64,000 bases of DNA from an uncultured Gammaproteobacteria bacterium (GCA_964435035.1 CAYSXR010000004.1:676-64675), one strand, 5' to 3'; positions 741 to 61,372 are shown, numbered from the stretch's first letter. The notes: a model not told the origin generated them from the sequence alone. Numbers and translations are program-made.

Positions 741-3700
741 ATGTACGACCCTATTACCCGCGCTCTCATTGCCTCAGCTCCACCCCTCAAAGGGCTTGAA
801 CGAGCGCGCTTGCCCGAGGAATTAGCTCAGGCATACGCGACACTTGTGTCCGCGCGACTTCGCCTTCAGGAAGTACCCGACGATCCCGAGTGGCCTAAGG
901 AGATTGCCCGGGTCCGCCGCTTGGCCAACACCTACGAAACTTACGCGGCGGCGCTTGCCGAGCGAGACGATCAGGAAGCCGCCGCGTTTGTCGCTGCGAC
1001 GGCTCACGGCATCGTTCAGCGTGCCGTCTCGCTCCGTGATCCATCGACTGCAGCAACGGTGCTGGCGAGCAATTTCATCTCGCCAGACATCTCGGCATGC
1101 CTTCTTTTCCTTGCGGCGGGCTATTTTGCTGACGCGCTGGAGGTCGCACGGAGATTCCAGATCCCCAAAGAGGCACGCGAAGTGGACGTGGTGGGCCTGC
1201 AACGTATGATCCAGCATCTCGTTGCGGGTCGTCTTGGTGCAGCCATCAATGCCCGCAGAGAGATGTCCACGGACCGTGCGCAGCGTGATGTTGTTGCACG
1301 GCTGTACCTCGACATTGCAGATGCGGTCGAAGTCCTATGTACTGAGATCCGAGACGGAACGACGCTCGACTCGGTCGCTCGACTGCGCTCAGCTCAGCAG
1401 CGCGCAACGCTTCCGATTCTCGTAGCGGGGCGCGTGCCTGCGACGGTGGCTACTCTAGCGGGACCGCACCATCTTGCGACGCTACTTCTCCAAGCCGCGC
1501 CTTCACTGTTGCGGCGACGTATGTCGATCATCCCAGCGCCACTCGGCACAGGCGCGTCATGGGAGAACTTCAAGGCAAATCTCTCCCATCTGCGCCCGTT
1601 TTTGTGGAGAAGTCACGAGAATGCGGTGGAGTCCGGGTTTCTGAACCCGGGAACATCGGCAGTGCTCAGCTTTCCGACCGGGTCTGGTAAGTCGACGATG
1701 GCGGAGCTCAAGGTCGCGAGCACGCTGTCAACCGACAAGCATATTCTCTACCTCGTGCCGACGCATGCCTTAGTGTCGCAGGTCACGGCAGACCTAAAGC
1801 GCGCGTTCCCCGACACGGGCGTGGCCGACTCCATAGTCTTTGAGGCAGACTACACCGAAGTCGAGGAGCAGCAGGCACAGATTGCCGTCATGACGCCGGA
1901 ACGTGCCTTGACCATCCTGAGTAGCGACCCCGCCACGTTCGACGGAGTCGGCCTCATTGTCATGGACGAGTGTCACCTGTTGCATCCGGGCGAAGAAGAT
2001 CGGCTTCGCCGCAACATCGATGCAATGTTCTGCTTGCTGTCATCGACGGCACACTGCCCGGATGCGGACGTTCTCTTGATGTCCGCAATGATGCAGAACC
2101 ATATGGAACTCGCTGCGTGGCTTGCAGATCTCACCGGCCGTCCATGTCTCGGGCTCAGCACTGATTGGAAGCCAACTCGCCAGATGCGTGGCTGCGTGGT
2201 TTTTGGCTCGGAGGAAGTCGAGGCACTTAACGCTCTGATTGCCCGTGCAAAAGCCGTCAAGACTACGAAAGGACCGCCGGCGGGCTTAGTTCGGTCCCTG
2301 ACCGCTCAGCCTCAGGCCCTATTCGGGCTCAAACAGACATGGTCCCGTGACGCGCTGGACTTCAAGCTCTTACCGTTGCTCAATCGGAAGCTGCAACTGA
2401 AGGCCAACAAGGACTGGTGGCTCACCCCAAATCGGAATGAGGTGTCAGCCGAGCTTGCCACTGAATTTGCAGACCGAGGTCTGCCTGTACTCGTCTTCGC
2501 CGAATCCCCGCGCCTCGCCGATTCTCTTGCAGATGCGATCGCCGAGAAGCGAAACGGAACCGTCGCGCTTCTTGGTGATGAGACTCGTCTCCGTGAGATT
2601 GCAGTTGATGAACTCGGGTCAGACGCTGACCTTCGGGGCCTGACCAACGGATTGGCCGCGTCGCACCACGGGTTGCTGCTGCCAACTGAACGGCGCCTCG
2701 TAGAGAGCGTCTACAAGCGCGGAGATCAGACCATCGCGCTCGTTGGAACCCCAACGCTCGCGCAAGGTGTCAATTTGCCAGCGGAGGTTGTCATTGTGTC
2801 GGGTGACGACCGCTACAACCCGGTAACGAAGAAGTCAACGCCGCTAAACGCCGAGGAACTCCTCAATGCGGTAGCACGAGCGGGGCGACCTGGCTTCGCA
2901 TCCGTTGGAATCGTCCTGGTTGTTCCTGGACGCGTGGTGAGTGTCGACTGGTCGGCAACCACCGTAGGAAAGCGGTGGCTCGACTTGCAGAAGGATGTGT
3001 TCTCAAAGCTCGATCAGTGTCTTGTCATTGATGACCCACTCGAACGAATGCTTGACCTCGTCCAGACCACGCCCAACGCCACAGATGCGCGGTACTTTCT
3101 TAATCGTCTTCCAACTGATGGTTCAACAGTAAAGCAGTTCTTGGCGCGAAGCTTCGGTGCATATCGAGCGAGTCAGGCGATGCAACGCGAGGCCTTCGAC
3201 CGGAAAGCGTTCCATGTTGCGGCGCTCCGAGAAGCTGCTAGCCCAGAGGATGAGTGGGTCGACGCGATCGCGGTGACGTCTGGTGTTGATATTGAGTTTG
3301 CGCGCTCTCTGGCAAGTCAGTTCGAGGACAATCCAGGGTATTGGGACTGCACGACGGTGCAAGAGCTATGTGGGCGGTTCTTTCAATGGCTCCGAGAAGA
3401 CTCAGTCCGAGGACATGCACTGTTCCGAGGTTCTGTCTCGAAAAGCTCTCTGGGCCCGGAAGATATGGAAGACTTGGTCGAAATGTGGATCGGTGGGTCT
3501 ACACTGCGAGAGTTGGAGAGTCGTCTAAGCGACAAAGTCGTTGATGGATGCTGGAAGGCTAGAGAGTTTGTGCTCCGTCGAGTGCCGGATATTTCCTACG
3601 GGCTTGGCGTGGTTGCTCACGCCTACCGCCTGAAGGTAGGCGAAGGGGGCGACATGCCGACCGTTCTGGCTTGTGGGGCCGAGTGTCTCAAGAGGGGGTT

Positions 3701-5299: not shown

Positions 5300-5316
5300 G
5301 CGCCTGTTACTTCATT

Positions 5317-5347
5317 AAAAAATCCTCTGTAAATCAGAGGATTTTTT
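5317..5347 (+). terminator. Rho-independent terminator after rplL
   Basis: AAAAATCCTCTG-taaat-CAGAGGATTTTTT. Confidence 0.8.
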
Positions 5348-5362
5348 AATTTTCTAATGTTT

Positions 5363-5457
5363 AAATTATTCTAATTATACTAATTGACCTAAGTGCTTTA
5401 AAATTTATTTTGATTTTTTTTAGAATAATTAGAGTAATTAGAACAATTAGGTTAATT
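5363..5457. repeat. Family A intergenic iteron palindrome, copy A1
   Basis: Left arm of three 9-mers (AATTATTCT, AATTATACT, AATTGACCT), a spacer, then right arm AGAATAATT, AGAGTAATT, AGAACAATT, AGGTTAATT, which are reverse-complement 9-mers. Lies between the convergent rplL and the membrane protein gene. Confidence 0.7.
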
Positions 5458-7715
5458 TATAATTTAAACTTGTATACCACTGTCCCATCCAACACATACG
5501 CTTCTTTTTCATCTGCACTAATCGTTAGTCCAGTTGGATTGGTCCATTGGTCTGCGGTAAATTGTTTTTTGAAAGTACCTTCTTTATCGAGCATAATTAT
5601 TCGTTTTCGTGAAGGCTCGAGTATATATAGATTTCCAAATTCACTATTTGTTTCGATTAGAGTAGGAGATTCAAGTATTGGATCAAGACCTGAAATTTCA
5701 AATGGCTGTTCCTCTCCTGCAGTGAATTTAATAATTTCTCCTTTTGATGTTGCTACAAAGATATCTCCATCAATTCCAAATGCTGTGCTATTTTTGAGTG
5801 CATTTTGTGTATGGGGCGCCTGTACCCATGTAGTACCATTGTCATATCCAATTTGTGTTGGATTGTGTCGATATAGAGTACCGTTTCCTGTATCCAGTGC
5901 GTAGAGACGTCCATTGTAGAGTGCAATGTCTTTCAGTACTACTGATTGATTTGGGTAGCCGATTGTTTTTGAGATAATACTATCTGAGATGTTGTCGTAT
6001 GCTACAATTGTGTTCGTTCCTGAGATAAATACCACTTGTGAATTATCTTTTGCTGTATATCCTTGTGTGAGCTGGCGTGTAGTCTCAGCATTTTTGGTTT
6101 CTACTGTTCCGGTTAGTGTGGATATGAAATATAATGAAGAATCAGTAATTCCTGTAGCGATTAATTTGTCACCGACTAGTACTAACGAATCAGGTCTTGC
6201 GTTGGTTATCGTATCTTTAATGTCAGCTATCTTTTCAGGTGTGATTGTGGTAATTTTTTGTACCCTAATCAGGAGTTTTGCAAGCTCTGATTTGATTTTA
6301 TCAGCGTGCGATTGTTTTTCTGGAGTTTCGTGTGTGAGTGAATTGAGTAGGTTTTCAGCATCACGTAGAGACTCAAGTGCTTTGGTATTTTCTCCGTAGA
6401 GAAGATAGGACTCAACTTCTTTTTGTTTTTCATCCACCTGCACCATTTCTGCTTGGTACGTTTCTTCTGCAATAATTTCTTTTTGTTTTGCTTTCATGTA
6501 CATGACGCTACCAATAAGTACTGCAATTCCTACGATTAGAGTGAGGAGTAATATTTTTCCAAACATTCCGAGACTAGTAATTCGGTCTACTATTCTTGTG
6601 ATTGATGTCTTGTATTGTTCGATCAAAATTTTTCTGCTTCCATTATAATTACTGATGAGCGACCATAGTATGGTGATGAATTTTCCGAGTGCAAATACCA
6701 CAGTCTTTAATACATAAAAGAGTGCTCGAACAATCCATACGAGCGATTTTCCAAGCATGATTAAAATGGTATTTGCTCCGTCTTCGACTACTCCCTCATC
6801 CCTTTTTCTTTTTTTATAGCGTCCTTGTTTGGTTTCTCTGATAGTCGAAGGTCGGTCGGGAGTATCTTCGGTGTTTCGTTTCATACTACCGGTGATAGAC
6901 TTGGCAAGGTGTGAAAAAACTTTTGGTGATAAGGTTTCTTCAGTTGAGCGTGTGGTGTCGATTAATTTATCCATTGATTCTTCTGAGCCAATAATTGGCC
7001 GATAGAGGTTTTTTTCTACACGTACAGGCTCAATCATCTCTGTCCCGGTGAGGACTAGTCCACCAAATGAGTATTCAGAGGAAATTGCTTCAAGTGTTTT
7101 TTGTACTTGATGAGCGGATTGTTTTGCGGGTTTTCCGATAATCATTTTGGCAATCCGATCGCATGAGAAATATTTGATGATATGTGGTGTTGAAATATAT
7201 ACTGCTTCATCAGTCGTAAAATTTCCTTCAATAACTGAAGAAAAGAAAATATGCTCCGGATATACCACTTCATCGACAATACGAGTGAATGAAGGTCCTT
7301 CAGGGGTGGAATACGCTAGAAGTGCAAGAATATCCCCTCGATATGCAAATGAAAGTTTGTTGCCCGTAATCACTCCAACTGCGATATGGATCTTTCTTTC
7401 TTCGTCTTCAAGCAGTACCTTTGCTCGGCGATTGAGTTTTTCGATAACTGATTCAAAGTGCTTTACTTCAGGATTCTCAGCATTTTTTGTTTCGCCATCA
7501 TAATCGCTATAGTATAGTGCCTCTCCATCGGTTATCAATTCTTCAATTATGCCTAATATTTTTCCTTCAGGATGATCAATTTCTGCGAGCACAAAAAAAT
7601 ATCCCTGATTTTCTCCGTCTGGTTTGCCAGGGGAAGCGATGTGGAGGAGTACGTGGGAAAGGTGACTATTTTTTCCTTCGACAAAAAATTCGTATACTTC
7701 ACTTTTTATAGGCAT
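5457..7715 (-). CDS. Hypothetical membrane protein with an N-terminal cytoplasmic domain, central TM helices and a C-terminal beta-propeller-like repeat domain
   Basis: Long ORF with hydrophobic segments ILIMLGKSLVWIVRALFYVL and LLTLIVGIAVLIGSV. C-terminal YVTN/NHL-like repeats (GNGTLY, GDIFVAT). The ORF track start is TTG at 7769; ATG at 7715 (MPIKSEVYEF) is preferred because a promoter lies between the two. Confidence 0.55.
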   Translation of the reverse strand: MPIKSEVYEFFVEGKNSHLSHVLLHIASPGKPDGENQGYFFVLAEIDHPEGKILGIIEELITDGEALYYSDYDGETKNAENPEVKHFESVIEKLNRRAKVLLEDEERKIHIAVGVITGNKLSFAYRGDILALLAYSTPEGPSFTRIVDEVVYPEHIFFSSVIEGNFTTDEAVYISTPHIIKYFSCDRIAKMIIGKPAKQSAHQVQKTLEAISSEYSFGGLVLTGTEMIEPVRVEKNLYRPIIGSEESMDKLIDTTRSTEETLSPKVFSHLAKSITGSMKRNTEDTPDRPSTIRETKQGRYKKRKRDEGVVEDGANTILIMLGKSLVWIVRALFYVLKTVVFALGKFITILWSLISNYNGSRKILIEQYKTSITRIVDRITSLGMFGKILLLTLIVGIAVLIGSVMYMKAKQKEIIAEETYQAEMVQVDEKQKEVESYLLYGENTKALESLRDAENLLNSLTHETPEKQSHADKIKSELAKLLIRVQKITTITPEKIADIKDTITNARPDSLVLVGDKLIATGITDSSLYFISTLTGTVETKNAETTRQLTQGYTAKDNSQVVFISGTNTIVAYDNISDSIISKTIGYPNQSVVLKDIALYNGRLYALDTGNGTLYRHNPTQIGYDNGTTWVQAPHTQNALKNSTAFGIDGDIFVATSKGEIIKFTAGEEQPFEISGLDPILESPTLIETNSEFGNLYILEPSRKRIIMLDKEGTFKKQFTADQWTNPTGLTISADEKEAYVLDGTVVYKFKL

Positions 7716-7720
7716 AGCTT

Positions 7721-7749
7721 TTGACACGATAATACCTACATAGTATACT
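7721..7749 (+). promoter_or_regulatory. Bidirectional promoter region with a shared palindromic -10
   Basis: + strand: TTGACA, 17 nt, TATACT. - strand: TTGCGA, 16 nt, TATACT. Both use the palindrome AGTATACT at 7742-7749. Confidence 0.5.
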
Positions 7750-7814
7750 ACAGACTGTCTATTTCGCAATAACGTATCCCTTTATTTTGCTTATATACAG
7801 ACGTTTTCAATTGT

Positions 7815-8445: not shown

Positions 8446-8554
8446 AAAATTATTCTAATTGTACTAATTGACCTAATTATTCTAATAAGAATTAGAAAGT
8501 GGCAGGGTTTTTAATCTGGGATTTTTAGAATAATTAGGGTAATTAGAATAATTG
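8446..8554. repeat. Family A iteron palindrome, copy A2
   Basis: Four left 9-mers (AATTATTCT, AATTGTACT, AATTGACCT, AATTATTCT), a 40-nt spacer, then right arm AGAATAATT, AGGGTAATT, AGAATAATT, ending 12 nt before the ATG at 8566. Confidence 0.7.
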
Positions 8555-10450: not shown

Positions 10451-11935
10451 ATGTTTATACAAGCTACATCTCGAGAAAAGAAAAAAAAGAAATTACCCTA
10501 TATTCTATTAAGTATTTTTTTGTTATTAGTATTATGTAGTCTCGCAGTATATTACGTCATTCGACATGTTGGAATTGAAGGATTTCTTTCATCTTCTTTT
10601 GTGCAGCAGCAAATTAGTAAACATGTTGGTGGGGATGAGGGTGATATTTTTGAGCTTTTGCCGATCGCGCTTGGTTTCGATGAACCAAAAACATACCTAG
10701 TGTTATTTTTAAATAATACAGAGATGCGTCCGGGCGGGGGATTTATTGGTGTGTATGGTACTGTTCGTGTTACGGGGGGGCATGTTGAGGTTTTGAAAGT
10801 TGAAGGAACTGAAATATTAGATAATCAATCTTCACATGTTAATGTGCCTGTTCCTCCAAGTCCTTTGTCTCAGTATCTGAAAGTTTCAGGGTGGTATTTC
10901 AGAGACAGTAACTGGTCTCCTGATTTTGCTGAGAGCTCAAAACAGGGGTTGGCACTGTATACTCGAGAGAATGGAGTTGCGTCGGGAGACATTGATGCAG
11001 TTATTGGAGTGACTGCTACGGTGCTTGAAGAACTTATGAAAAAAACTGGACCGATTACGATTAATGGAATTACGTTTACTCCAGAAAATGTAGTAGCTGA
11101 GCTTGAGCATGAGGTTGAATATAAATTTATTGATCGAGGAATTTCTCGAGGAGATCGTAAAGATATTATTGAGCCTTTTATGCTTGCTATGATTGATAAG
11201 TTGAAAAGTGATGTATTGCGTCATCCTTTTGAATATCGTGCACTCGCTGAAAAATTATTACAAGAAAAGCATGTTGTCGCATACGCACTTGATTCAAACA
11301 TTCAAAATACGTTACATGAACATTCAGCAGATGGAAGTATTGCAGATACGACTGGCGATTATCTCATGTGGGTGGATGCCAATCTTGGTGCATTAAAAAC
11401 TGATCATGCGATTACACGTACACTTTCTTATACTATACAACCAGAAGTGTCTCCAACAGGGGATCGGTATTATGAAGCGACTGCGACGATGAAGTATATA
11501 CACTCGCAGCCTTTTGACTGGAGAACGTCGCGATACCGTACGTACGCACGAGTGTTTGTGCCTGAAGGCTCTGAACTGATTTCTTTTCGTGTAAGTAAAG
11601 GGCAACAGGTCCCCCCATATCTAGCTCAGAGTGGAGAAGAGCTTGGAAAAAAATGGTTTGGAACTTTTGTTACTATAGAACCGCTTGGAGTTGAAACACT
11701 CACCTTCACCTATCGTTTGCCCAACTCCATCGCTCAGCAGATTGATCAAAAAATGTATACGTTACATGTACAAAAACAAATCGGCCTTGTGGGCGCTTCA
11801 TTGACGCTCGACCTTGATTTTGATACAACTATCCAAGCAGCAGAACCTCCTGAAATGCAATCTGAGTGGGGGGATGGTGTGTATCGGTTCGAAACCCGGT
11901 TTGATCGAGATTGGGAGTTTGAAGTACGGATGTAG
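10451..11935 (+). CDS. Membrane-anchored DUF4012-like protein, commonly adjacent to glycosyltransferases
   Basis: N-terminal TM; LVLFLNNTEMRPGGGFIGVYG motif. Confidence 0.45.
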   Translation: MFIQATSREKKKKKLPYILLSIFLLLVLCSLAVYYVIRHVGIEGFLSSSFVQQQISKHVGGDEGDIFELLPIALGFDEPKTYLVLFLNNTEMRPGGGFIGVYGTVRVTGGHVEVLKVEGTEILDNQSSHVNVPVPPSPLSQYLKVSGWYFRDSNWSPDFAESSKQGLALYTRENGVASGDIDAVIGVTATVLEELMKKTGPITINGITFTPENVVAELEHEVEYKFIDRGISRGDRKDIIEPFMLAMIDKLKSDVLRHPFEYRALAEKLLQEKHVVAYALDSNIQNTLHEHSADGSIADTTGDYLMWVDANLGALKTDHAITRTLSYTIQPEVSPTGDRYYEATATMKYIHSQPFDWRTSRYRTYARVFVPEGSELISFRVSKGQQVPPYLAQSGEELGKKWFGTFVTIEPLGVETLTFTYRLPNSIAQQIDQKMYTLHVQKQIGLVGASLTLDLDFDTTIQAAEPPEMQSEWGDGVYRFETRFDRDWEFEVRM

Positions 11936-11997
11936 TTATAATTTTAAAAGAGATAAGATTTATTGTTTTCTAGTAAAAGAGTAAAAAGTTGGTTTTT

Positions 11998-12030
11998 ACC
12001 AGATAACTAGCAAACCAGTAAACTAGATAA
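11998..12030 (-). repeat. Family E 8-bp periodic CTRGTT repeat, copy E1 in reverse orientation
   Basis: Reverse complement reads ATCTAGTT-TACTGGTT-TGCTAGTT-ATCTGGT. Lies immediately upstream of mreB. Confidence 0.5.
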
Positions 12031-12039
12031 CGAGCTATT

Positions 12040-13041: not shown

Positions 13042-13050
13042 TTAACAACT

Positions 13051-13116
13051 AACAGTGAGCAATTAACAAGAATTTAAATTTGTTAATTGTTAGTTGCTCA
13101 CTGTTAATTTTATTTT
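13051..13116 (+). terminator. Long imperfect hairpin plus T-tract after mreB
   Basis: AACAGTGAGCAA/TTGCTCACTGTT outer stem with inner TTAACAA/TTGTTAA, followed by AATTTTATTTT. Confidence 0.55.
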
Positions 13117-15229: not shown

Positions 15230-16315
15230 ATGAAACGATCGCTTTCATCCATTTTTCTTTTATTCATCGTTATTATCTTAAGCGGACAAGCTTGTGTTGT
15301 TTTTGGGAGTAAGAAAAATACCGCACTAGGTCCTGCAGGAGTGTGGGTTACTACAAAGAATGGTGAATCATGGACACAAATTGTGTCAGTTCCTACAGCT
15401 GAAGGGGTAGTACAGGTTCCACAGGCCGAGGTATATAAGCTTATTGATGACCCCCAAGATGCTCATGCACTTTATTGGGCATCACGAGAAGATGGAATTT
15501 TTTATAGTTATGATGATGGTAGAACGTGGGCTCGTGCCGAAGCTCCGCTAAATACTGGATTTATATATAGTATCGCTGTACACCCTAAAGAAAAATGTAC
15601 TATTTATGCTTCGAATGGAAGGCAGGTTTTCAAAACACTCGACTGTATGCGTTCGTGGACTGAAGTATACCGAGAAAATCGTGCTGAATTTGTCGTAACT
15701 TCAGTTTCGATTAATCCGTTTAATCCTTTTGAAGTTTTTGCAGCAACAAGCGCGGGTGATTTGTATGAGAGTGCTGATGGAGGAAATTCATGGCAAGTGA
15801 ATACTCGACTTAATAGAACGGACATTCGTGAAGTGGTGTTTGACCGGAACAAGGAAGGAATTATGTATCTAGCAACCAGAGAAAATGGGTTGTATCGTAC
15901 GCGTGATGGGGGAACTACCTGGGAAAATCTCGCGCCTAATTTTAGGGAATATGCGGGTTCTTTACAGTTCCGTAGATTTATGGTATATCCTTCTAAAGCT
16001 GAGACTATTTTCTGGGTTTCAAAATATGGAATTCTAACGTCACGTAATTCTGGAGAAGAGTGGGAACCAATATCTTTGGTCACACCTCCAGGAAGCGTTG
16101 ATATCTATGGATTTTCGGTTAATCCAAATAATGACAAAGAAATGTATTACACAGGGAGTATTGGAGATCGCTCTACGTTTTACCGGAGTGTTGATGGTGG
16201 GGTGACCTGGGAAACACGTAAATTGCCTACAAAACAGACTCCCACGGCACTTCGTGTGCATCCTGAGCAAGATGGGTGGGTGTATCTCGGGTTTACGACG
16301 ATAATTAAAAAATAA
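15230..16315 (+). CDS. Secreted BNR/Asp-box repeat protein (sialidase-like beta-propeller)
   Basis: Signal peptide; five S-x-D-x-G-x-T-W Asp-box motifs (SYDDGRTW, SADGGNSW, TRDGGTTW, SRNSGEEW, SVDGGVTW). Confidence 0.7.
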   Translation: MKRSLSSIFLLFIVIILSGQACVVFGSKKNTALGPAGVWVTTKNGESWTQIVSVPTAEGVVQVPQAEVYKLIDDPQDAHALYWASREDGIFYSYDDGRTWARAEAPLNTGFIYSIAVHPKEKCTIYASNGRQVFKTLDCMRSWTEVYRENRAEFVVTSVSINPFNPFEVFAATSAGDLYESADGGNSWQVNTRLNRTDIREVVFDRNKEGIMYLATRENGLYRTRDGGTTWENLAPNFREYAGSLQFRRFMVYPSKAETIFWVSKYGILTSRNSGEEWEPISLVTPPGSVDIYGFSVNPNNDKEMYYTGSIGDRSTFYRSVDGGVTWETRKLPTKQTPTALRVHPEQDGWVYLGFTTIIKK

Positions 16316-16412
16316 ACATTGATTACGCAGATTGAATATGGATTTAGACTGAAAATTCAGGATTTTCCATGTTAATCAGTTTAAATCAATAATAATCAGT
16401 TTAAATCAATGT
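16316..16412 (+). repeat. Family B structured leader element, copy B1
   Basis: ACATTGATT...AATCAATGT termini (9-bp inverted). Internal GGATTTAGACTGA pairs with TCAGTTTAAATC through a G-U-compatible mismatch. Ends 3 nt before the frr ATG. Confidence 0.65.
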
Positions 16413-16415
16413 TAT

Positions 16416-26632: not shown

Positions 26633-26722
26633 ACATTGATTCAAACAGATTAATACAGATTACACAGATAGATGTATTTGTATTTTCAGTTTAAATCCGT
26701 TTGAATCAGTCTAAATCAATGT
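26633..26722 (+). repeat. Family B structured leader element, copy B2, between the T-box terminator and the glyS ATG
   Basis: ACATTGATT...TCAGTTTAAATCCG...AATCAGTCTAAATCAATGT; ends 3 nt before the ATG. Confidence 0.65.
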
Positions 26723-26725
26723 TGT

Positions 26726-28036
26726 ATGTCTCAAGATACCATGGAAGCTCTTATATCATTATGCAAACGTCGAGGTTTTGTTTTTCCTGGGAGTGAAATT
26801 TACGGGGGTCTTGCTAATGCATGGGATTACGGTCCATTGGGTGCGCAGATGAAGAAAAATATTAAAGACTTGTGGTGGAAGCAATTTGTTGAAAGCAGGA
26901 TCGATATGGTTCCCTTTGATGGAGCAATACTTATGAATCCAAAAGTGTGGGAAGCGAGTGGGCACGTGGCAACCTTCAATGATCCATTAGTTGAATGTAA
27001 AAATTGTCATGGTCGTTTTCGAGCTGATCAGGTGGATATTTCCAAAAATTGTCCAACCTGTGGAAAAAAAGATTGGACCGAAGCTAAACAGTTTAATCTG
27101 ATGTTTAAAACGTCCATTGGTCCCTCAGAAGAAAGTGCTAATACGGTGTATCTTCGTCCAGAAACTGCCCAGGCAATGTTTGTAAATTTTAAACAGGTTG
27201 CAAATACGAGTCGAAAAAGACTTCCTTTTGGAATTGCACAAATTGGAAAAGCATTTCGTAATGAAATTACGCCCGGGAATTTTATTTTCCGAACACTTGA
27301 ATTCGAACAAATGGAAATTGAATATTTCATTGAAGAGAATGAGTGGGAAAAATTGTTTGAAAATTGGTTGAAAGATACCTATTCTTTTGCTCGTGCATTG
27401 GGAATCAAAACGGATCTTATGCATGATTTGGAAGTTCCTGAAGATGAACGAGCACATTATTCCAAACGCACTGTTGATATCATGTTTGATTTTCCCTTTG
27501 GACAGAAAGAGTTGTGGGGTCTTGCGTATCGTGGGGATTATGATTTGCGTCAGCATGAAGCACACTCAAAACAATCTCTGGAATATACGGATCCTCTCGA
27601 TAATAAACGAAAAATAATTCCGCATGTGATTGAGCCTTCATTTGGAGTAGATCGAACATTGCTTGCTGTTCTCGTATCTGCATACGAAGAGCAATTGGTA
27701 AAAGAAGGGGATACACGTGTTGTGTTACACCTGAAGCCGGCAATCGCTCCCTATCATGTTGCCGTATTGCCACTCATGAAAAAAGACGGACTTGCTGAAA
27801 TTGCACAGACATTACACTCTGAGTTATTGAAATATTTTAGAGCAGATTATGATGAATCGGGAAGTGTGGGAAAACGGTATCGAAGACATGATGAAATTGG
27901 AACTCCGTTTTGTGTCACAGTGGATTATGAATCAAAAGATGATAATTGTGTCACCGTTCGCGACCGTGATACAATGACGCAGGAGCGGATGAAGATTGAG
28001 GATTTACCTGAGTTTTTGCGAGGAAAAATGATTTAG
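26726..28036 (+). CDS. glyS: Glycine--tRNA ligase (class II, alpha2 type)
   Basis: LCKRRGFVFPGSEIYGG...GPLG class II motifs; about 436 aa. Confidence 0.85.
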   Translation: MSQDTMEALISLCKRRGFVFPGSEIYGGLANAWDYGPLGAQMKKNIKDLWWKQFVESRIDMVPFDGAILMNPKVWEASGHVATFNDPLVECKNCHGRFRADQVDISKNCPTCGKKDWTEAKQFNLMFKTSIGPSEESANTVYLRPETAQAMFVNFKQVANTSRKRLPFGIAQIGKAFRNEITPGNFIFRTLEFEQMEIEYFIEENEWEKLFENWLKDTYSFARALGIKTDLMHDLEVPEDERAHYSKRTVDIMFDFPFGQKELWGLAYRGDYDLRQHEAHSKQSLEYTDPLDNKRKIIPHVIEPSFGVDRTLLAVLVSAYEEQLVKEGDTRVVLHLKPAIAPYHVAVLPLMKKDGLAEIAQTLHSELLKYFRADYDESGSVGKRYRRHDEIGTPFCVTVDYESKDDNCVTVRDRDTMTQERMKIEDLPEFLRGKMI

Positions 28037-28050
28037 TTATAGATAAAATT

Positions 28051-28160
28051 AAATTATTCTAATTATACTAATTAACCTAATTGTTTTAACACTCATAATA
28101 TAGGTTGAAAGAATGTATACGTTTAGGTAAATTAGAATAATTAGAGTACTTAGAATAATT
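28051..28160. repeat. Family A iteron palindrome, copy A3
   Basis: AATTATTCT, AATTATACT, AATTAACCT ... AGGTAAATT, AGAATAATT, AGAGTACTT, AGAATAATT; ends 9 nt before the ATG at 28169. Confidence 0.7.
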
Positions 28161-28168
28161 TTTTACTT

Positions 28169-29428
28169 ATGTACGAACGATATAATCTCCACAATGGAGC
28201 AGAAGTGTGTCTAGTTCCTATCAAGGATGCACAGTCAACGACTGTTCTTATTATGTATCCTGTTGGTTCACGCTATGAATCATTTAAATTGAATGGAGTG
28301 TCACATTATATTGAACATCTTTTTTTCAAAGGTACTAAGAAGCGTCCAACGACTTTGAAGTTGACTAGTGAAATTGATCGACTTGGTGCCGAGTATAATG
28401 CATTTACGAGTAAAGAATATACAGGATATTATATTAAAGCAGCAGGAAATTTTCTTGAAACTTCGCTTGATATTCTTTCAGACATGCTTTTCAATTCACT
28501 GTTTGATGCGCGTGAAATGGAGAGAGAGAAGAAAGTAATTGCTGAAGAAATCAAAATGTATAATGATAATCCACTGATGCATATTGATTCAGTGTTTGAA
28601 AGTTCGCTCTATAAGGGCAGTCCTCTTGCGTGGGATATTGCAGGAACGGTAAAGCATGTACAAGAATACAAGCGTGAGGATGTGTTGAAGTATCGTGATA
28701 CGTATTATGATGCAAGTGCAATGAAGATTGTGATTGCAGGTGCGATGAATGCTGAAACGAAAAATTTGATTGAAAAATATTTTGGTATACCTGCAACCAA
28801 GAAAAAAATGAAAAATGTGTATAAACCAATGGTCTATGGTTCAACCAAGCGAGAAGATCGATTGGTGATTGATCATAAAACTACTGACCAGGTGCAGATG
28901 ATGCTTGGGTTTCCCTCATTTTCACATACGGATGAGAGGTTGCATGCTCAGACAGTCATGAATACTATTCTCGGAGGATCGATGAGTTCACGTTTGTTTA
29001 TTCAGATTCGCGAACGCAGGGGATTGGCCTATATGGTGCGCTCAGGATCGGATCAATTCCGTGACACGGGTTATACGTTTGTTCGCTCAGGCCTTGAAGC
29101 GACAAATATTAATAAAGCACTTGACGTTATCAAAAATGAAATTGAAAAAATGGTCGAGAAGGGTGTAACCAAGAAAGAGTTAGAAGATGCTAAGACTCAT
29201 ATCAGAGGATCATTTACCCTTTCTCTTGAGGATAGTAGTATGCAGGCGAATTATTATGCACGCCATTTATTATTCCAGAAAAATATTGAAACTCCTGAAG
29301 AAATACTTTCAAAAATCGATGAGGTTACACATGATGAGATCAAAGCGGTGGCGAAGAAATTATTCAATTGGAAACAAGCGCGGCTTGCGATTATTGGAAA
29401 TACTGATGAGTCGAAGATTAAGTTCTAG
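28169..29428 (+). CDS. M16 family zinc metallopeptidase (pitrilysin/insulinase-like)
   Basis: Inverted zinc motif HYIEHLFFKG (HxxEH). Confidence 0.8.
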   Translation: MYERYNLHNGAEVCLVPIKDAQSTTVLIMYPVGSRYESFKLNGVSHYIEHLFFKGTKKRPTTLKLTSEIDRLGAEYNAFTSKEYTGYYIKAAGNFLETSLDILSDMLFNSLFDAREMEREKKVIAEEIKMYNDNPLMHIDSVFESSLYKGSPLAWDIAGTVKHVQEYKREDVLKYRDTYYDASAMKIVIAGAMNAETKNLIEKYFGIPATKKKMKNVYKPMVYGSTKREDRLVIDHKTTDQVQMMLGFPSFSHTDERLHAQTVMNTILGGSMSSRLFIQIRERRGLAYMVRSGSDQFRDTGYTFVRSGLEATNINKALDVIKNEIEKMVEKGVTKKELEDAKTHIRGSFTLSLEDSSMQANYYARHLLFQKNIETPEEILSKIDEVTHDEIKAVAKKLFNWKQARLAIIGNTDESKIKF

Positions 29429-29484
29429 AACAGGTTACACGCGAAATTTGAATGAATCGAATTTATGAATAGGAGAAAAGTTTT

Positions 29485-29514
29485 CTGGTTTACTGGTTGT
29501 CTAGTTGTCTGGTG
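29485..29514 (+). repeat. Family E 8-bp periodic repeat, copy E2
   Basis: CTGGTTTA-CTGGTTGT-CTAGTTGT-CTGGTG. Confidence 0.5.
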
Positions 29515-29553
29515 AATTCGTGTATTCTTTTGACTTTTTACTTTTGACTTCAC

Positions 29554-31466: not shown

Positions 31467-31468
31467 AT

Positions 31469-31498
31469 AAAAAGTCGCTTTACCAAGCGGCTTTTTTT
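31469..31498 (+). terminator. Rho-independent terminator after the tRNA pair
   Basis: AAAGTCGCTT-tacc-AAGCGGCTTTTTTT. Confidence 0.7.
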
Positions 31499-31531
31499 GT
31501 AGTATACTCAGTACATATACTTAATCTATAT

Positions 31532-32557
31532 ATGGAAATACTGCCTGGACAACCTCGAAATACATTTGTGCCGTTTCTTTTATTTATTATTTTTTCTATC
31601 TTTGCTGCTTTTGGAGCTGCATATATTTTTTTTAGTTCTACAAATAATCAGCGTGCCCAAACTGATACTATCCGTTTACTAACCATTGACGAAGTTTCGC
31701 AGCAAAATGCAATATCTGGAGGAGGATCAGTTCTATCTATTAATACGTCTACCCTTATCGATAACCCAACACTTTCCGAGATACTAGGACCAGAAGATGA
31801 AAACGGATTATTTTTACACGTCCTTGAGGGGTATGAGCTTGATAAAATAATTCCTATACCACATTCTTCAAGTACTTTGATTGGAACAAGGCATATTACA
31901 GGTACTACCTCTTCAACGTATTCGTTTATGTTGTGGAATGTTTTTGGTGATAGTAGTGATGCTGTCTTGGTAAAGAAATTAGACGTAGATGAGTGTGGTT
32001 TGCCAGGTGTGCAGTGGGAATATTTGTCTGATAAAAGCGCAGTTATAGTCAACTATTGGCAGCGTTCTTGTGAGGGTGATGGTATTCATACGATGTATTA
32101 TTTTGCAGATGATTTTGTTGAGAAATTTAAAATAGTTGAAACCACTGATACGTCAACACTAGTCTTAAGTTTTACTGACAGTAGTACGACGTCTACTATT
32201 TCTTTAATTTCTGATAACGACTGCACTCAATTACCATATCCACGGGAAACTGGTAAAGAATGGAAAGATGAGAATCTACCAGTTGTAAATTTACTAGGTT
32301 TAAAAGTTGTCCGTACAGGAGAAGCTGGAAATAATGAAAAAATGTTAACTTTTTCATCTCCTATATCTTTGCGTTGTGAGGTAGGTTATGGGGATAGTAA
32401 GGAGAATCCATCAATAAAATTAATTAAGTATGCGGAGGGGCAATTACTGTTTGGATTTAATAAGTACGTGGGAATTATTGATCTTGATAAAATTGGAGAT
32501 ATTTTTGAGCATTCAGGTCCATATGGCATATCGGTTGAGGGTGTTACACTCAAATAA
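31532..32557 (+). CDS. Hypothetical secreted/membrane-anchored protein
   Basis: N-terminal TM helix FVPFLLFIIFSIFAAFGAAYIFF; no recognisable domain. Confidence 0.5.
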   Translation: MEILPGQPRNTFVPFLLFIIFSIFAAFGAAYIFFSSTNNQRAQTDTIRLLTIDEVSQQNAISGGGSVLSINTSTLIDNPTLSEILGPEDENGLFLHVLEGYELDKIIPIPHSSSTLIGTRHITGTTSSTYSFMLWNVFGDSSDAVLVKKLDVDECGLPGVQWEYLSDKSAVIVNYWQRSCEGDGIHTMYYFADDFVEKFKIVETTDTSTLVLSFTDSSTTSTISLISDNDCTQLPYPRETGKEWKDENLPVVNLLGLKVVRTGEAGNNEKMLTFSSPISLRCEVGYGDSKENPSIKLIKYAEGQLLFGFNKYVGIIDLDKIGDIFEHSGPYGISVEGVTLK

Positions 32558-32566
32558 TTAATAGTA

Positions 32567-32597
32567 TAAAAAGCCGCTTTACCGAGCGGCTTTTTTC
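32567..32597 (+). terminator. Rho-independent terminator, near-identical to the one at 31469
   Basis: AAAAGCCGCT-ttaccg-AGCGGCTTTTTT. Confidence 0.75.
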
Positions 32598-32614
32598 GTA
32601 TATAGTAACACTAT

Positions 32615-32900: not shown

Positions 32901-33358
32901 TACACTATGTCGTGTAGCACTTCGTCTGCATGTATTTCAGGTTTTACATTTTCGTAGTGTTTGAGAATAGTGCCCTCAGGACTGATGAGAAATGATTCTC
33001 GAACTATTCCCATATTTTTTTTACCAAACATTTCTTTCTCTCTCCATACTCCATATGCACTAATTACTTTTTTTTCAGGATCAGCGAGGAGCGGAAAATT
33101 TAAGTGAAATTTTTTAGCAAATTTTTTGTGTGACTCTATGTCATCAGCACTTACACCTAAGACTTGTACGTTTTTTTCTTTGAGTTCATTTAACCTGTCT
33201 TGAAAATTACACGCTTCGGTGGTGCAGCCAGGTGTGTCGTCTTTGGGGTAGAAATAGAGGAGTACATATCTGCCTGCATATTCTGCAAGACTGTGTGTGG
33301 TGCCAAATTGATCCTGGAGCGTGAAGTCAGGGGCTGGTGAATGGAGTGGGGGAGTCAT
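32900..33358 (-). CDS. bcp: Peroxiredoxin (Bcp/thiol peroxidase, AhpC/TSA family)
   Basis: FYPKDDTPGCTTEAC active-site motif. Confidence 0.85.
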   Translation of the reverse strand: MTPPLHSPAPDFTLQDQFGTTHSLAEYAGRYVLLYFYPKDDTPGCTTEACNFQDRLNELKEKNVQVLGVSADDIESHKKFAKKFHLNFPLLADPEKKVISAYGVWREKEMFGKKNMGIVRESFLISPEGTILKHYENVKPEIHADEVLHDIV

Positions 33359-33383
33359 ATAGTATTGATTTAGATTGATTAAA

Positions 33384-33453
33384 AATTGATTATGCAGATT
33401 AAAGAATATGTATTTTCAGTCTAAATCATAATTTAATCTGTTTGAATCAATGT
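33384..33453 (+). repeat. Family B element, copy B3 (degenerate)
   Basis: ATTGATTATGCAGATT...TCAGTCTAAATCA...AATCTGTTTGAATCAATGT; 50 nt upstream of the next ATG. Confidence 0.5.
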
Positions 33454-33505
33454 TAGTATACCATCACTTGCATATCTGTATAGTCTTGTGTTAGCGTATG
33501 GCTGT

Positions 33506-34298: not shown

Positions 34299-34384
34299 CT
34301 GAGAAAATGAACAATTAGCAATACACAATTAACAGCACAGTATTTTGTTAATTGCTCTTTGATAATTGTTCATTTTTCATTCAT

Positions 34385-36578: not shown

Positions 36579-38366
36579 ATGGAAATTCGAAACATTGCAA
36601 TTATCGCACACGTAGACCATGGTAAAACCACTTTGACCGATGCTTTGCTTCGCGAGTGTGGCATGATTACTGAGGAAGGTCAGACTATGGATTCAAACAC
36701 TCTTGAAAAAGAGCGTGGTATTACGATTTATGCCAAAAATACCTCGCTTTTTTATAAAGGAACCAAAGTAAATATCGTGGATACTCCGGGCCATGCTGAT
36801 TTTGGTTCTGAAGTAGAGCGTGTACTCCGATCGATTGATTCAGTGTTATTGATTGTTGATGCTCAGGAAGGTCCGATGCCTCAAACTAAATTTGTATTGA
36901 AAAAATCTCTTGAAATTGGTTTGAAACCGATTGTGGTTTTGAATAAAATTGATAAACCTGCTGCACGACCACAAGAAGCTCATGATATGGTTTTGGAACT
37001 ATTTATGGATCTTGGAGCAAATGATGAACAACTCAATTTTACGACTGTTTATGCAATTGGCAAACTTGGTATTGCAAAAAAGAACTTAACTGATGAGTCA
37101 ACTAATCTTGAACCATTGCTTGATACAATTCTCGAAAAAGTACCTGCTGCTCGCCATGATATTACCAAACCTCTTCGGATGCAGCCATTTAACCTCGCGT
37201 ACGACAATTATCTGGGTCGTCTTGCTGTTGGGCGTATTTACGAAGGTGTGGTAAAGCAGGGTGATAAAGTATTTATCAAAAATGAGGATGGAACTGTCCG
37301 AACGGGGAATATTACCAAAATTCAAAATTTTAAAGGTTTTGCTCGTGAAGAAGTGCAGCAAGCTGAAGCAGGGGATATTGCTATGATTGCGGGAATTCCT
37401 GATATTTATATTGGTGAGACCATTTGTGTTTCAGCTGATCAGGAAGCATTACCTGCTATCAAGGTTGATGATCCAACAATTTCTATTGATTTTTTGGTCA
37501 ACAATTCTCCATTTGCTGGAAAAGAGGGAACCTATGTAACCAGTAGACAAATTCGCGAACGACTTGAAAAAGAGCTCGAGGTGAACGTGGGTCTACATGT
37601 GGAATTTGGTAGTGGAGATCGTTTTACCGTGTATGGACGAGGAGAAATGCATATCGCAATTTTGCTTGAAAATATGCGCCGTGAAGGATTCGAACTTCAG
37701 GTGTCTCAACCTCGTGTAATTATCAAAGAAGAAAATGGAGAAAAAGTAGAGCCTTTTGAAGAAGTAACGATTGATGTGCCTGATATATATGTTGGTACGG
37801 TTATTGAAAAAATGAGTAAACGAAAGGGTAGTATGACGAATATGATGCCTGAAGGTGGTCATACTCGTATTATTTTTGAAATCCCAACTCGTGGTATCCT
37901 CGGATATCGTGGAGAATTTGTAATGGATACTCGTGGAGAGGGAATTATGGCGTCACGTGTGACTGGATTCCGTCCTCATGTGGGAGTTATTGAAAAGAGG
38001 GAAGTTGGAAGTATGGTTTCTATGCTTACTGGAAAAGCGCTTGGATATGCACTGTGGAATCTCCAGGAACGAGGTACACTCTATATCGGACCAAACATTG
38101 AAATTTACGAGGGAATGGTTATTGGTAATGTGGCGAAGGGTCAGGATATGGCAGTGAATGCAATCAAAGGAAAGAAACTTTCAAACATGCGAGCAAGTGG
38201 CAGTGATGATGCAATTATTCTTACTCCTCCATTTGAAATTTCACTTGAGCGTGGTATGGAAATCATGACTGATGATGAATATCTTGAAATTACTCCAAAA
38301 AGTATTAGACTTCGAAAGAAATATTTGACTGAGGTTGAACGAAATAAGGCGAAGAGGTCGAGTTAA
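36579..38366 (+). CDS. typA: Translational GTPase TypA/BipA
   Basis: G1 AHVDHGKTT, G3 DTPGH, G4 NKID; EF-G-like domain order without domain IV; C-terminal BipA domain. Confidence 0.9.
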   Translation: MEIRNIAIIAHVDHGKTTLTDALLRECGMITEEGQTMDSNTLEKERGITIYAKNTSLFYKGTKVNIVDTPGHADFGSEVERVLRSIDSVLLIVDAQEGPMPQTKFVLKKSLEIGLKPIVVLNKIDKPAARPQEAHDMVLELFMDLGANDEQLNFTTVYAIGKLGIAKKNLTDESTNLEPLLDTILEKVPAARHDITKPLRMQPFNLAYDNYLGRLAVGRIYEGVVKQGDKVFIKNEDGTVRTGNITKIQNFKGFAREEVQQAEAGDIAMIAGIPDIYIGETICVSADQEALPAIKVDDPTISIDFLVNNSPFAGKEGTYVTSRQIRERLEKELEVNVGLHVEFGSGDRFTVYGRGEMHIAILLENMRREGFELQVSQPRVIIKEENGEKVEPFEEVTIDVPDIYVGTVIEKMSKRKGSMTNMMPEGGHTRIIFEIPTRGILGYRGEFVMDTRGEGIMASRVTGFRPHVGVIEKREVGSMVSMLTGKALGYALWNLQERGTLYIGPNIEIYEGMVIGNVAKGQDMAVNAIKGKKLSNMRASGSDDAIILTPPFEISLERGMEIMTDDEYLEITPKSIRLRKKYLTEVERNKAKRSS

Positions 38367-38390
38367 CTGGTTATCTAGTTGTCTGGTTTT
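38367..38390 (+). repeat. Family E 8-bp periodic repeat, copy E3 (begins at the typA stop codon)
   Basis: CTGGTTAT-CTAGTTGT-CTGGTTTT. Confidence 0.5.
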
Positions 38391-38467: not shown

Positions 38468-38538
38468 ATTCATATCAGGGTGTGAGCTATTGAAAAAGTT
38501 ATTTATATTCGCTATACTCTGGTAGATAATTAATCCAT

Positions 38539-39029: not shown

Positions 39030-39123
39030 TTTCACAGTATAATTGTTGGGATATAAACATACCCCTTCTCCTCACGTAAAATAGTTTCAACGTCCCGTAC
39101 GATGTTCTGTACGGAACAACCAT

Positions 39124-39151
39124 TGACAAATTCTCTTCTTTCTGCTATACT
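39124..39151 (+). promoter_or_regulatory. Promoter of the DEAD-box helicase gene, followed by a roughly 100-nt structured leader
   Basis: TTGACA, 16 nt, TATACT; leader hairpins GAGGAGATTTACTCCTC and TAGTGGCCCAGTAGACATCGGGTCACTA. Confidence 0.55.
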
Positions 39152-39252
39152 CGCATTTCATTCATTAGAGGAGATTTACTCCTCATAGACTCGAATCTTC
39201 TTGTTCCATAGTTGTAGTGGCCCAGTAGACATCGGGTCACTATATTTATTTT

Positions 39253-45951: not shown

Positions 45952-47148
45952 TTGTTAATTATTATGATGCTAAAACAAACGGTATCAGAAGAGATTGTAC
46001 ATTTCCGTGGTTTATTCCAGCGGCGTATTGGTTTGTGGCAAGGAGTTGCGTTAATTGTGAGCGGAACGATTGGAGCAGGAGTATTGGGACTTCCATATGC
46101 AATTTCTCGCTCAGGAGCCATAGTCGGTTTTTTGTATATTGTGGCTCTTGGTTTGATTATGATGGTCTTGAATTTGATGCTTGGACAATTAGTTTCAATC
46201 CAACCAAAACCACTACAACTTACTGGTCTTGCACGAAAATATTTAGGTGCGTGGGGCGGATATCTGATGACTGCAATACTCTATACTATGCTTGTTGGAG
46301 TGTTATTGGTCTATCTCATTGGTGAAGGTGAGACATTATCTGTGTTATTTGGTGGACCAAGCGAGTATTGGACTATTGGTTTTTTTCTATTGGGTGCAGC
46401 GCTTATTGCTAGTGGCATGAGGACTATAAAACGTGTTGAATCCGTTTTGGTGGTAGGTATACTTGCTGTAGTATTTATGATTATATTGGTGAGTTTTCCT
46501 CAGGTGGATACTGCAAATTTGATTTCATATAATTTTTCTGAATTATTATTTCCGTACGGTGTGGTTCTTTTTGCTTTCCATAGCACTACTTCGATGCCCG
46601 AGGCATATACGATACTCAAAAATAAAAATGGAACGTATAAACATTCAATTGTTTTTGCGGGTATAATTGCGATTTTGGTATATGCTGCTTTTGCATTGCT
46701 TGCTGTTGGAGTTATGGGAGATGCAACACCCGAAATTGCAACGATTGGTTTGGGGGAGTTTATCGGCCATCGAGCTTTTCTATTTGGTAATGTTTTTGCT
46801 CTGTTGGCTATGGGTACGAGTTTCTTGATTACTGCTCTTTCGCTTAGAGATTCGTTGACTTGGGATTATGGAATGCGCGAATGGGTAGCAACGATTGTAG
46901 TGTGTATAGTTCCATTTTTGCTTTTTTATTTTGGTTTACGGAGTTTTATTGCGGTTATTGATATTATTGGGGGAGTATTAGTCACCGCTGAGCTTTTCTT
47001 GATTATTCTCATGTATTGGAGAGCTCATCAAAAGGGAGAATTTAAAGGGGCACGTACTTTTTCACTCCATCGAGTAGGGTTGTTTATTATTCCTGTACTT
47101 CTTGCGCTAGCTATTGGTGCGGTGTATAGTGTGGGGAAACTGTTTTAA
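45952..47148 (+). CDS. Amino acid permease (APC/aromatic amino acid transporter-like, 11-12 TM)
   Basis: GAGVLGLPYA motif typical of amino acid transporters; polytopic. Confidence 0.6.
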   Translation: MLIIMMLKQTVSEEIVHFRGLFQRRIGLWQGVALIVSGTIGAGVLGLPYAISRSGAIVGFLYIVALGLIMMVLNLMLGQLVSIQPKPLQLTGLARKYLGAWGGYLMTAILYTMLVGVLLVYLIGEGETLSVLFGGPSEYWTIGFFLLGAALIASGMRTIKRVESVLVVGILAVVFMIILVSFPQVDTANLISYNFSELLFPYGVVLFAFHSTTSMPEAYTILKNKNGTYKHSIVFAGIIAILVYAAFALLAVGVMGDATPEIATIGLGEFIGHRAFLFGNVFALLAMGTSFLITALSLRDSLTWDYGMREWVATIVVCIVPFLLFYFGLRSFIAVIDIIGGVLVTAELFLIILMYWRAHQKGEFKGARTFSLHRVGLFIIPVLLALAIGAVYSVGKLF

Positions 47149-47236
47149 ACATTGATTACGCAGATTAATATGGATTTAAACAGATTGGATATAATTTTTT
47201 CAGTCTAAATCCGTTTTAATCTGTTTAAATCAATGT
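47149..47236 (+). repeat. Family B structured leader element, copy B4
   Basis: ACATTGATT and AATCAATGT outer stem. GATTTAAACAGATT pairs perfectly with AATCTGTTTAAATC (14 bp). Ends 3 nt before the uppP ATG. Confidence 0.7.
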
Positions 47237-47239
47237 TGT

Positions 47240-61314: not shown

Positions 61315-61372
61315 TTATATTTATTGGAATTGGATGCTATACTTATATCTCACCTATATTTAACTCATACAT

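Follow-up and report, generated by a model that had tools for sequence, protein, structure and literature searches.

Palindromic 9-bp iteron arrays of CPR genomes share their arms with elements carrying a PF05635 gene

The intergenic palindromes described here (family A) are copies of a real, CPR-wide and polymorphic repeat, whose arms are also those of elements bearing a PF05635 gene, and which can occupy an rRNA loop. They were analysed in a window of 64,000 nucleotides (the whole stretch of DNA studied), and the copy shown above is one of several in it. The explanation that we favour, with moderate confidence, is that the family A copies belong, as non-autonomous members that have no ORF, to a CPR-wide set of selfish palindromic elements of the rRNA intervening-sequence (IVS) type.

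In the window the design is (AATTNNNCT)3-4 / 26-45 nt / (AGNNNAATT)3-4, and it occurs as five palindromes and one solo arm. A phased search of the window resolved each arm of the palindromes into three to four head-to-tail 9-mers. The AATTNNNCTAATTNNNCTAATT pattern, with at most one mismatch allowed, matched 20 times, every time within the six sites, whereas dinucleotide shuffles predicted 0.01 matches and none of 100 shuffles got to 20. The observed number is far above chance. The CTAATT core hexamer had 27 of its 57 occurrences in the 64 kb inside family A copies, which make up less than 1% of the window. The full copies are non-coding and 95-110 bp long:

5363-5457: family A copy 1; left array 5364-5390 (3 units), centre 31 nt, right array 5422-5457 (4 units)
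8446-8554: family A copy 2; left array 8448-8483 (4 units), centre 43 nt, right array 8527-8553 (3 units)
28051-28160: family A copy 3; left array 28052-28087, centre 37 nt, right array 28125-28160
50027-50135: family A copy 4; left array 50028-50063, centre 45 nt, right array 50109-50135
51593-51619, plus strand: solo right arm, AACAAAATT AGGTCAATT AGAATAATT
54864-54963: family A copy 5; left array 54866-54901, centre 26 nt, right array 54928-54963

Direct reading and the phased search confirmed the five full copies and the half copy that the first-pass annotation had reported at these sites, with small corrections of the coordinates. Copy 4 ends at 50135 as reported, but starts at 50027 and not at 50017. 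The half copy, reported at 51600-51620, is present and consists of two perfect units (51598-51619) and one degenerate unit, which extends it to 51593. The TTGACC and TAGAAT hexamers attributed to the arms were also found there.

Copy 1 is located between convergent genes, right after the L7/L12 terminator (5314-5350). Copy 3 is flanked by the genes of a class II aminoacyl-tRNA synthetase and an M16 peptidase, copy 4 by a HlyD-like gene and the gene of the CCA-adding enzyme, copy 5 by the stop codon of an FtsX-type permease and the conserved yidC promoter (TTGCTT-N17-TATACT). The description of the copies as strictly intergenic was nearly right; the exceptions are the solo arm, which includes the stop codon of the CCA-adding enzyme (51601-51603), and copy 1, whose right arm shares 1 nt with the stop codon of the minus-strand ORF 5457-7769. 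The copies had also been said to end often 6-12 nt before a start codon. This holds for copy 2 (end at 8553, 6 nt to TTG 8560 or 12 nt to ATG 8566), copy 3 (end at 28160, 8 nt short of ATG 28169) and the solo arm (end at 51619, 7 nt before the ATG of an ABC ATPase gene), but not for copy 4 (50135, 16 nt), copy 5 (54963, 49 nt) or copy 1 between its convergent genes.

Unit statistics were obtained from 174 arrays with 648 units. The unit is CTAATT-R-N-Y, with 96-100% fixation at six positions and variation as R, N and Y at the other three; the frequencies along the unit were A, A, T, T, A (.71) or G (.27), T (.48), A (.33) or C (.14), T (.58) or C (.32), C, T. The vocabulary of the variable triplet is small (ATT in 230, AAC in 104 and GAC in 66 of the 648 units, GCT and ATA being also common), and the order of the triplets differs from copy to copy, the left array of copy 2 having ATT, GTA, GAC and ATT. 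In many CPR genomes the centre contains a second, inner inverted pair of arrays made of CCAAT-type heptamers, and outer modules are sometimes present.

The terminal inverted repeats of all five full copies are predicted to form an extended stem, as those of IVSs do. Family A copies all fold, in the computed RNA structures, as long imperfect A/U-rich stems (about -22 to -32 kcal/mol, z -4.9 to -6.9); on the plus strand the five window copies range from -24.5 to -31.8 kcal/mol (copy 1, -24.5 kcal/mol, z -5.1; copy 2, -29.8 kcal/mol, z -4.9; copy 3, z -5.1; copy 4, z -5.2; copy 5, -31.8 kcal/mol, z -6.9). The arms of aligned copies, which the first-pass annotation had proposed to compare for compensatory changes, showed none: arm-arm covariation was absent in outer, inner and shifted registers, with or without G-U pairs and for either transcript. 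In the symmetric register the variable triplets matched in 35% compared with 47-48% in shuffled partners (z about -4.7), worse than shuffled, and part of this deficit may be selection bias of the search pattern; a small set free of that bias gave the same sign (z -1.2 to -2.6). The shifted registers were at chance level. Selection for a perfect RNA stem in the arms is not seen. Since the six fixed positions are kept across phyla without pairing of the arms, pairing does not explain them and sequence-specific recognition is indicated. The idea that the repeat is a protein-binding array is thus probably correct at the level of the 9-mer. No Rfam family was found at the family A sites, and only five tRNAs reached the gathering score in the window.

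The M16 peptidase and the CCA-adding enzyme that flank family A copies have their best homologues in Candidatus Magasanikbacteria (CPR/Patescibacteria), and by this homology the window comes from a Candidatus Magasanikbacteria genome. The neighbours of the copies are housekeeping genes (L7/L12, class II aminoacyl-tRNA synthetase, M16 peptidase, CCA enzyme, ABC transporter, YidC). Upstream of about 50 window genes no Shine-Dalgarno motif was found; the leaders are U/A-rich. Operon-internal spacers in the window measure only 1-25 nt. The first 4000 nucleotides of the window have a GC content of 0.58, compared with 0.37-0.41 elsewhere in it. They encode a 237-aa ORF that matches nothing in Pfam, together with a 1040-aa DEAD/ResIII helicase-like protein. 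This segment may have a foreign origin or mark an assembly or concatenation join immediately ahead of the L10-L7/L12 operon, and the window may hold assembly chimeras at repeats.

The repeat is not restricted to the window. A AATTATTCTAATTNNNCTAATT scan of species-representative genomes matched at least 118 stretches, mostly in CPR genomes, and the palindromic design was present in at least 12 CPR lineages, among them Saccharibacteria, Doudna-, Staskawicz-, Yanofsky-, Zambryski-, Portnoy-, Shapiro-, Roizman- and Magasanikbacteria and unclassified Patescibacteria. Matches labelled Gammaproteobacteria, Planctomycetia or Woesearchaeota combine the CPR design with low GC, and one of these, the MAG CAYMVY01, is syntenic with the window; judged by these sequence features, the labels are probably wrong. 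Matches in rumen Prevotellaceae/Bacteroidaceae were rejected as family A because they represent a different repeat, GGAAAGAAATTAGAATAATTAGAATAATT, with two units only and with arms facing the opposite way. At L021, L022, L079, L092 and other rumen Prevotellaceae/Bacteroidaceae loci the GGAAAGAAATTAGAATAATTAGAATAATT repeat forms diverging inverted pairs about 35-50 nt apart; only a two-unit AGAATAATT string is common to it and family A. A phage origin was rejected as well, as viral contigs yielded only 16 stretches, all solo arrays, a number compatible with chance in AT-rich DNA. One Saccharibacteria contig with a family A array (L002) also contains a group I intron at 3305-3505 (Rfam RF00028, 61.6 bits).

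Among genomes whose flanking proteins are 76-98% identical, three orthologous sites were filled in some, empty in others or occupied by another iteron family. At the synthetase|peptidase site an orthologous copy 3 is common to the window and L122 (peptidase 78% identical). The same site is empty in L120 (96%), L121 (86%) and L124 (76%), with spacers of 12, 11 and 2 nt, respectively, and 14-21 kb of these three relatives contained no family A arrays. In the 98% relatives L125/L127 the site is occupied by an unrelated iteron palindrome. At the HlyD|CCA site another iteron family is present in the 95% relative L224 and none in L225, L226 and L227. At the permease|yidC site, L224 and L225 have CGAAT-heptamer palindromes, L226 has an AAAGTC palindrome and L227 has nothing, all these variants being upstream of one conserved yidC promoter. 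The solo arm is identical in L224; in L225 a single unit of it is left. Family A is thus sporadic among close relatives, as IVS-type elements are. The spacers appear to be hot spots for exchange among element families.

Unrelated palindromes at the sites occupied by family A in the window were located at 9909-10000 in L125, 10714-10861 in L224, and 10803-10922 and 7489-7555 in L226; their dialects are ATTGAAG-type, CGAAT heptamers and AAAGTC units, and the HlyD|CCA site of L224 has a GTTKNCTRG-like array. The window itself has further iteron families. A second palindromic family, ..ACATTGATTTAAAC.. / ..TTTAAATCAATGTTRT, is found at four places, and its end falls right at the ATG of the genes that follow (16416, 26726 and 47240). 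Two others, the 8-mer GTTKNCTRG and the CAATTAACA-type, occur in window spacers:

16313-16413, 26633-26732, 33352-33454 and 47146-47245: ACATTGATTTAAAC/TTTAAATCAATGTTRT family
11995-12031, 29480-29516, 38362-38387, and also 13044-13110, 34304-34376 and 58031-58056: GTTKNCTRG and CAATTAACA-type families

Two more repeats were noticed. A 30-nt inverted pair (AACATAATAGAACACGGATGACACAGAATT and its complement, 87%) at 58541-58570 and 61292-61321 surrounds the hsp20-dnaK region and, by its position, could be a heat-shock operator. Terminator-like hairpins AAAAAGYCGCTTTACCRAGCGGCTTTTTT, 91% identical, are found at 31467-31501 and 32566-32600, downstream of a tRNA pair and of the gene 31532-32557.

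The part of the window around copy 3 (27700-28170) is a mosaic: the 3′ end of the synthetase gene and copy 3 are nearer to L122 (over about 500 nt), both flanks nearer to L120. The pattern could result from import of the element by recombination, or from chimeric assembly at the repeat. Assemblies break at family A copies. Within one genome the identity between the centres of copies reached 0.96 (Doudnabacteria SWC_9), which indicates recent copying there, compared with 0.48 between genomes. The five window centres have 0.51-0.68 identity, barely above the value for copies of different genomes.

Proximity to genes was evaluated for arrays and solo arms. Fifty of the 69 start-facing arrays end 0-20 nt (mode 7) ahead of a start codon, gene ends are equally tightly abutted (-6 to +12 nt), and the solo arms, 31 facing starts and 24 facing ends, show no orientation bias. 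The elements simply occupy very short stop-to-start (or stop-to-promoter) spacers, and the closeness to start codons follows from insertion into spacers of about 2-25 nt.

These data bear on a host function of the arrays, for which the first-pass annotation had suggested binding of a nucleoid protein or global regulator. Operators for a conserved CPR protein of this kind, selected beside gene starts, would account for a 9-mer consensus kept in very divergent CPR lineages without covariation of the arms, for the many arrays ending shortly before start codons and for the solo arm kept in the 95% relative. Such a role is nevertheless quite unlikely. Relatives with 76-96% identical flanking protein have no arrays in 14-21 kb, or carry unrelated iteron families or nothing at the same sites; gene ends are abutted as tightly as starts, solo arms face both, and insertion into short spacers explains the distance to the start codon.

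We consider it very unlikely that the copies are promoter/terminator cassettes, in which the centre would end the upstream gene and outward TAGAAT-like units would serve as -10 elements of short-leader or leaderless mRNAs. Units do read outward as TAGAAT or TAGTAT, the genome is devoid of Shine-Dalgarno sequences, and centres in other CPR genomes are often hairpins followed by TTTATTT. Moreover, copy 3 is situated where relatives have an operon-internal spacer of 2-12 nt, so that downstream expression must either traverse the copy or begin in it. Consensus promoter scans of the window copies, however, matched only 9-10 of 12 positions, at a place that differs from copy to copy, and no intrinsic terminator (G+C-rich stem plus T run) was called in them. 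The organism's real promoters are of the form TTGACA-N17-TATACT (7721-7749, 38489-38519, 39122-39152 and 55639-55669 in the window), an intact conserved yidC promoter is present downstream of copy 5, copy 1 faces two gene ends and the orientation of solo arms is unbiased. The cassette proposed in the first-pass annotation was therefore not borne out.

The observations that carry the IVS-type reading came from longer forms of the repeat. In L003 and L047 the left and right arrays are 0.4-0.5 kb apart and surround an ORF of about 125 aa, and a homologous ORF lies likewise between family A arms in L081, L082, L094 and L100, which makes six CPR loci. The ORF product matched PF05635, '23S rRNA intervening-sequence protein', above the gathering score (E 2e-9 and 2e-12), and TIGR02436, 'four helix bundle protein' (2.8e-19), has a relative in the PDB (2rld) and a pI of 8.7-9.3. 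PF05635/TIGR02436 is the 'S23p' protein encoded in 23S rRNA intervening sequences and is related to Avd of DGRs.

Eighty metagenome loci, chosen independently and by homology to the PF05635 protein alone, were then examined. Family A arrays were present within 250 nt in 23 of the 80 loci, on both sides in 12; among the low-GC loci, roughly 40 by a locus-by-locus count, about 22 had them. Other loci of the sample, high-GC ones included, had inverted arrays of other 7-9-mers (GAATGAC/GAAGCAC, AAATGACA, TTCTAAT, CTAATNN). Inverted repeated 5-mers were found in the flanks of 66 of the 71 testable loci and of 6 of 44 displaced controls; three or more were found in 46 of 71 and 0 of 44, respectively. 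The iteron core was common to nearest protein neighbours in 39 of 59 cases, compared with 18 expected, a co-variation of protein and iteron that could reflect common host ancestry. Of the iteron families of the window other than family A (B, C, D, with ACATTGATTTAAAC/TTTAAATCAATGTTRT among those searched), none was found around the 80 PF05635 homologues, where only the CGAATG dialect was encountered. The PF05635 family comprises at least 7,997 clusters at E <= 1e-20, and many of its members sit on very short contigs (0.5-2 kb).

Both full-length and ORF-less copies were found within a single MAG for Doudnabacteria SWC_9 (L094 compared with L010, L042, L043 and L050) and for Yanofskybacteria (L047). 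As the same arms enclose PF05635 in relatives, we infer that the ORF-less copies of the window, with centres of 26-45 nt, are non-autonomous derivatives. No PF05635 homologue was found in the window or in about 241 kb of (partly redundant) related Magasanikbacteria DNA, so a trans-acting partner for the window genome remains hypothetical.

A MITE was, of the three suggestions of the first-pass annotation, the closest to what was found: the copies are multi-copy palindromes, short (below 300 bp), non-coding and polymorphic in their presence at orthologous sites, and longer, gene-bearing relatives exist. Taken literally, this reading would make the arrays multi-site inverted repeats for an unseen conventional transposase of an autonomous IS and PF05635 a frequent cargo. 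It would also suit the combination of conserved arms and variable centres, typical of old MITE families, and the breaking of assemblies at copies. We nevertheless regard it as unlikely. A search of the flanks of 49 elements for target-site duplications (k = 2, 3, 4, 5, 6 and 8, offsets 0-4 nt), one of the checks advised at the outset, gave nothing above shuffled partners. Among the loci retrieved, arrays 0.4-4 kb apart enclose PF05635 or housekeeping genes (PGK, YidC), no transposase was found between them, and inverted repeats in common with a transposase-encoding autonomous IS were not seen; the gene-bearing partner encodes a 125-aa four-helix-bundle protein. The PF05635 gene could be cargo and not a mobility or maintenance factor, and we know of no nuclease or recombinase activity of a 125-aa helical bundle of this kind. 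Cargo status is, however, hard to reconcile with a link between PF05635 and iterons that spans unrelated dialects (66 of 71 loci).

The idea that the elements generally insert into hairpin loops already present was rejected, since only 3 of 49 have complementary flanks. In L046 (4222-5648) half-elements consisting of one arm plus the centre are found on both sides of the phosphoglycerate kinase gene, between GAPDH and RpiB; arms and centres are therefore separable around single housekeeping genes.

Correia-type repeats of Neisseria, 100-155 bp long, have inverted ends and a TA duplication, and their transcripts are cut by RNase III. Family A resembles these and MITEs in its length (about 100-170 bp), its palindromic structure, its intergenic position near genes and its presence/absence polymorphism, and would likewise, judged by the predicted folds, provide a double-stranded RNA substrate if co-transcribed. 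It differs from them in lacking a target-site duplication, in arms that are iteron arrays with shuffled order of units, and in a gene-bearing relative that encodes no transposase.

IVSs, S23p and short tandem intergenic repeats are already known, IVSs and the S23p ORF since the early 1990s; to our knowledge neither the movement of IVSs nor the function of S23p has ever been explained, and the same is true of the cyanobacterial short tandem intergenic repeats. In L066 (Staskawiczbacteria) a 16S rRNA hairpin loop carries, at 16S model positions of about 188-191, an insertion of 186 nt that is mostly an ORF-less family A palindrome (6429-6577). IVSs are described as selfish elements with inverted repeats forming a stem that is cut by RNase III; some contain the S23p ORF, their distribution is sporadic and their mobility is unexplained (PMC4990558). 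Like the rRNA IVSs of Leptospira and Coxiella (PMC4990558), family A has terminal inverted repeats with a predicted long stem, one small ORF in its full-length form, for a four-helix-bundle protein that belongs with theirs in PF05635, no transposase, and a sporadic distribution suggesting horizontal spread. The window copies differ from IVSs in that they have no ORF, lie between protein-coding genes and not within the loop of an rRNA helix, and are many per genome (five full and one solo arm per 64 kb); in addition, the repeats of family A consist of 9-bp iterons in phase, and there is no preferential pairing between the variable positions.

Other known arrays share single features with family A. 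Mazel et al. are said to have described, in 1990, the cyanobacterial STRR heptamer repeats CCCCAAT and TTGGTCA. The TAACTGA heptamer repeats of Beggiatoaceae are intergenic tandem units (PMC4679880). As in STRR and TAACTGA repeats, the units of family A are short, tandem and intergenic and often end a few nucleotides before start codons, and the inner CCAAT/GACCAAT heptamers of many CPR family A elements resemble STRR1/STRR2; unlike those repeats, family A has a 9-bp unit and arrays in inverted pairs. A link of TAACTGA to PF05635 genes is not mentioned in PMC4679880. REP/BIME elements with RAYT are also abundant intergenic palindromes without target-site duplication; the arms of family A are direct CTAATTRNY arrays and not 20-40-nt hairpins with a GTAG head, and no RAYT gene was seen among the scanned window ORFs. 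The view that family A is neither CRISPR nor a classic REP/BIME element is upheld. The units of TIGR arrays have a period of 36 nt, with two alternating 8-12-nt repeats, two 9-nt variable spacers and an adjoining Nop-domain Tas gene (PMC12045711). Like family A, TIGR arrays (PMC12045711) have a short period, occur in CPR genomes and are missed by CRISPR finders. A TIGR/CRISPR guide array was rejected because family A has a 9-nt period, only three variable bases per unit, taken from a small vocabulary, inverted pairs, no Tas gene and housekeeping neighbours.

That the unit could be a DNA uptake signal for the CPR competence machinery, comparable to DUS of Neisseria or USS of Haemophilus, we regard as scarcely credible. 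It is true that the unit is short and conserved, that inverted pairs are found downstream of genes, as for DUS, and that the mosaic similarity around copy 3 suggests recombinational import. CTAATT, however, does not have the dense spread of DUS or USS, nearly half of its occurrences (27 of 57) being inside copies; close relatives have no arrays altogether, and the enclosed PF05635 gene and the many other dialects would be left unexplained.

According to the IVS-type explanation, a full-length element would consist of inverted CTAATT-R-N-Y arrays, inner modules (often CCAAT heptamers), the PF05635/TIGR02436 gene of about 125 aa and the mirror-image arrays, and the window copies would have retained only the arrays and a short variable centre. 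The fixed CTAATT core would be read sequence-specifically by a protein, most likely by the element's own four-helix-bundle protein, supplied in trans from full-length copies. When transcribed, the arms are predicted to pair into an imperfect, A/U-rich duplex of roughly 30 bp. The duplex would then be cleaved by RNase III, as in rRNA IVSs, and the cleavage may allow the element to be tolerated within operons and rRNA. Spread between lineages presumably involves homologous recombination of flanking genes.

A wider proposal can be put forward only tentatively. PF05635/TIGR02436 proteins may bind iterons sequence-specifically in a very large class of prokaryotic selfish elements that has so far gone unrecognised ('iteron palindromes'). 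The class would unite rRNA IVSs, the CPR repeats and the short tandem repeats found between the genes of cyanobacteria and sulfur bacteria; each protein clade would use a 7-9-bp dialect of its own, and the elements would spread without a transposase by an undescribed mechanism. Candidates for the copying step would be an RNA- or recombination-mediated route with an Avd-like nucleic-acid chaperone. In the literature we found no description of the CPR nonamer palindromes or of their ORF-less intergenic spread, nor of a general framing of PF05635 genes by inverted iteron arrays, and searches on CPR MITEs, CPR promoters and PF05635 mobility returned nothing relevant.

The analysis joins a CPR-wide 9-bp iteron palindrome, a four-helix-bundle gene of the PF05635 family and an insertion in rRNA. 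Inverted iteron arrays nearly always frame the PF05635 gene, even in hosts that differ greatly, and the resulting hypothesis, that the PF05635 protein reads the iterons, is testable in vitro. For CPR genomics the elements matter in that they break assemblies, may create chimeric joins and inflate 16S rRNA genes. In the genomes that carry them, they replace translation-initiation and operon-spacer sequences of essential genes.
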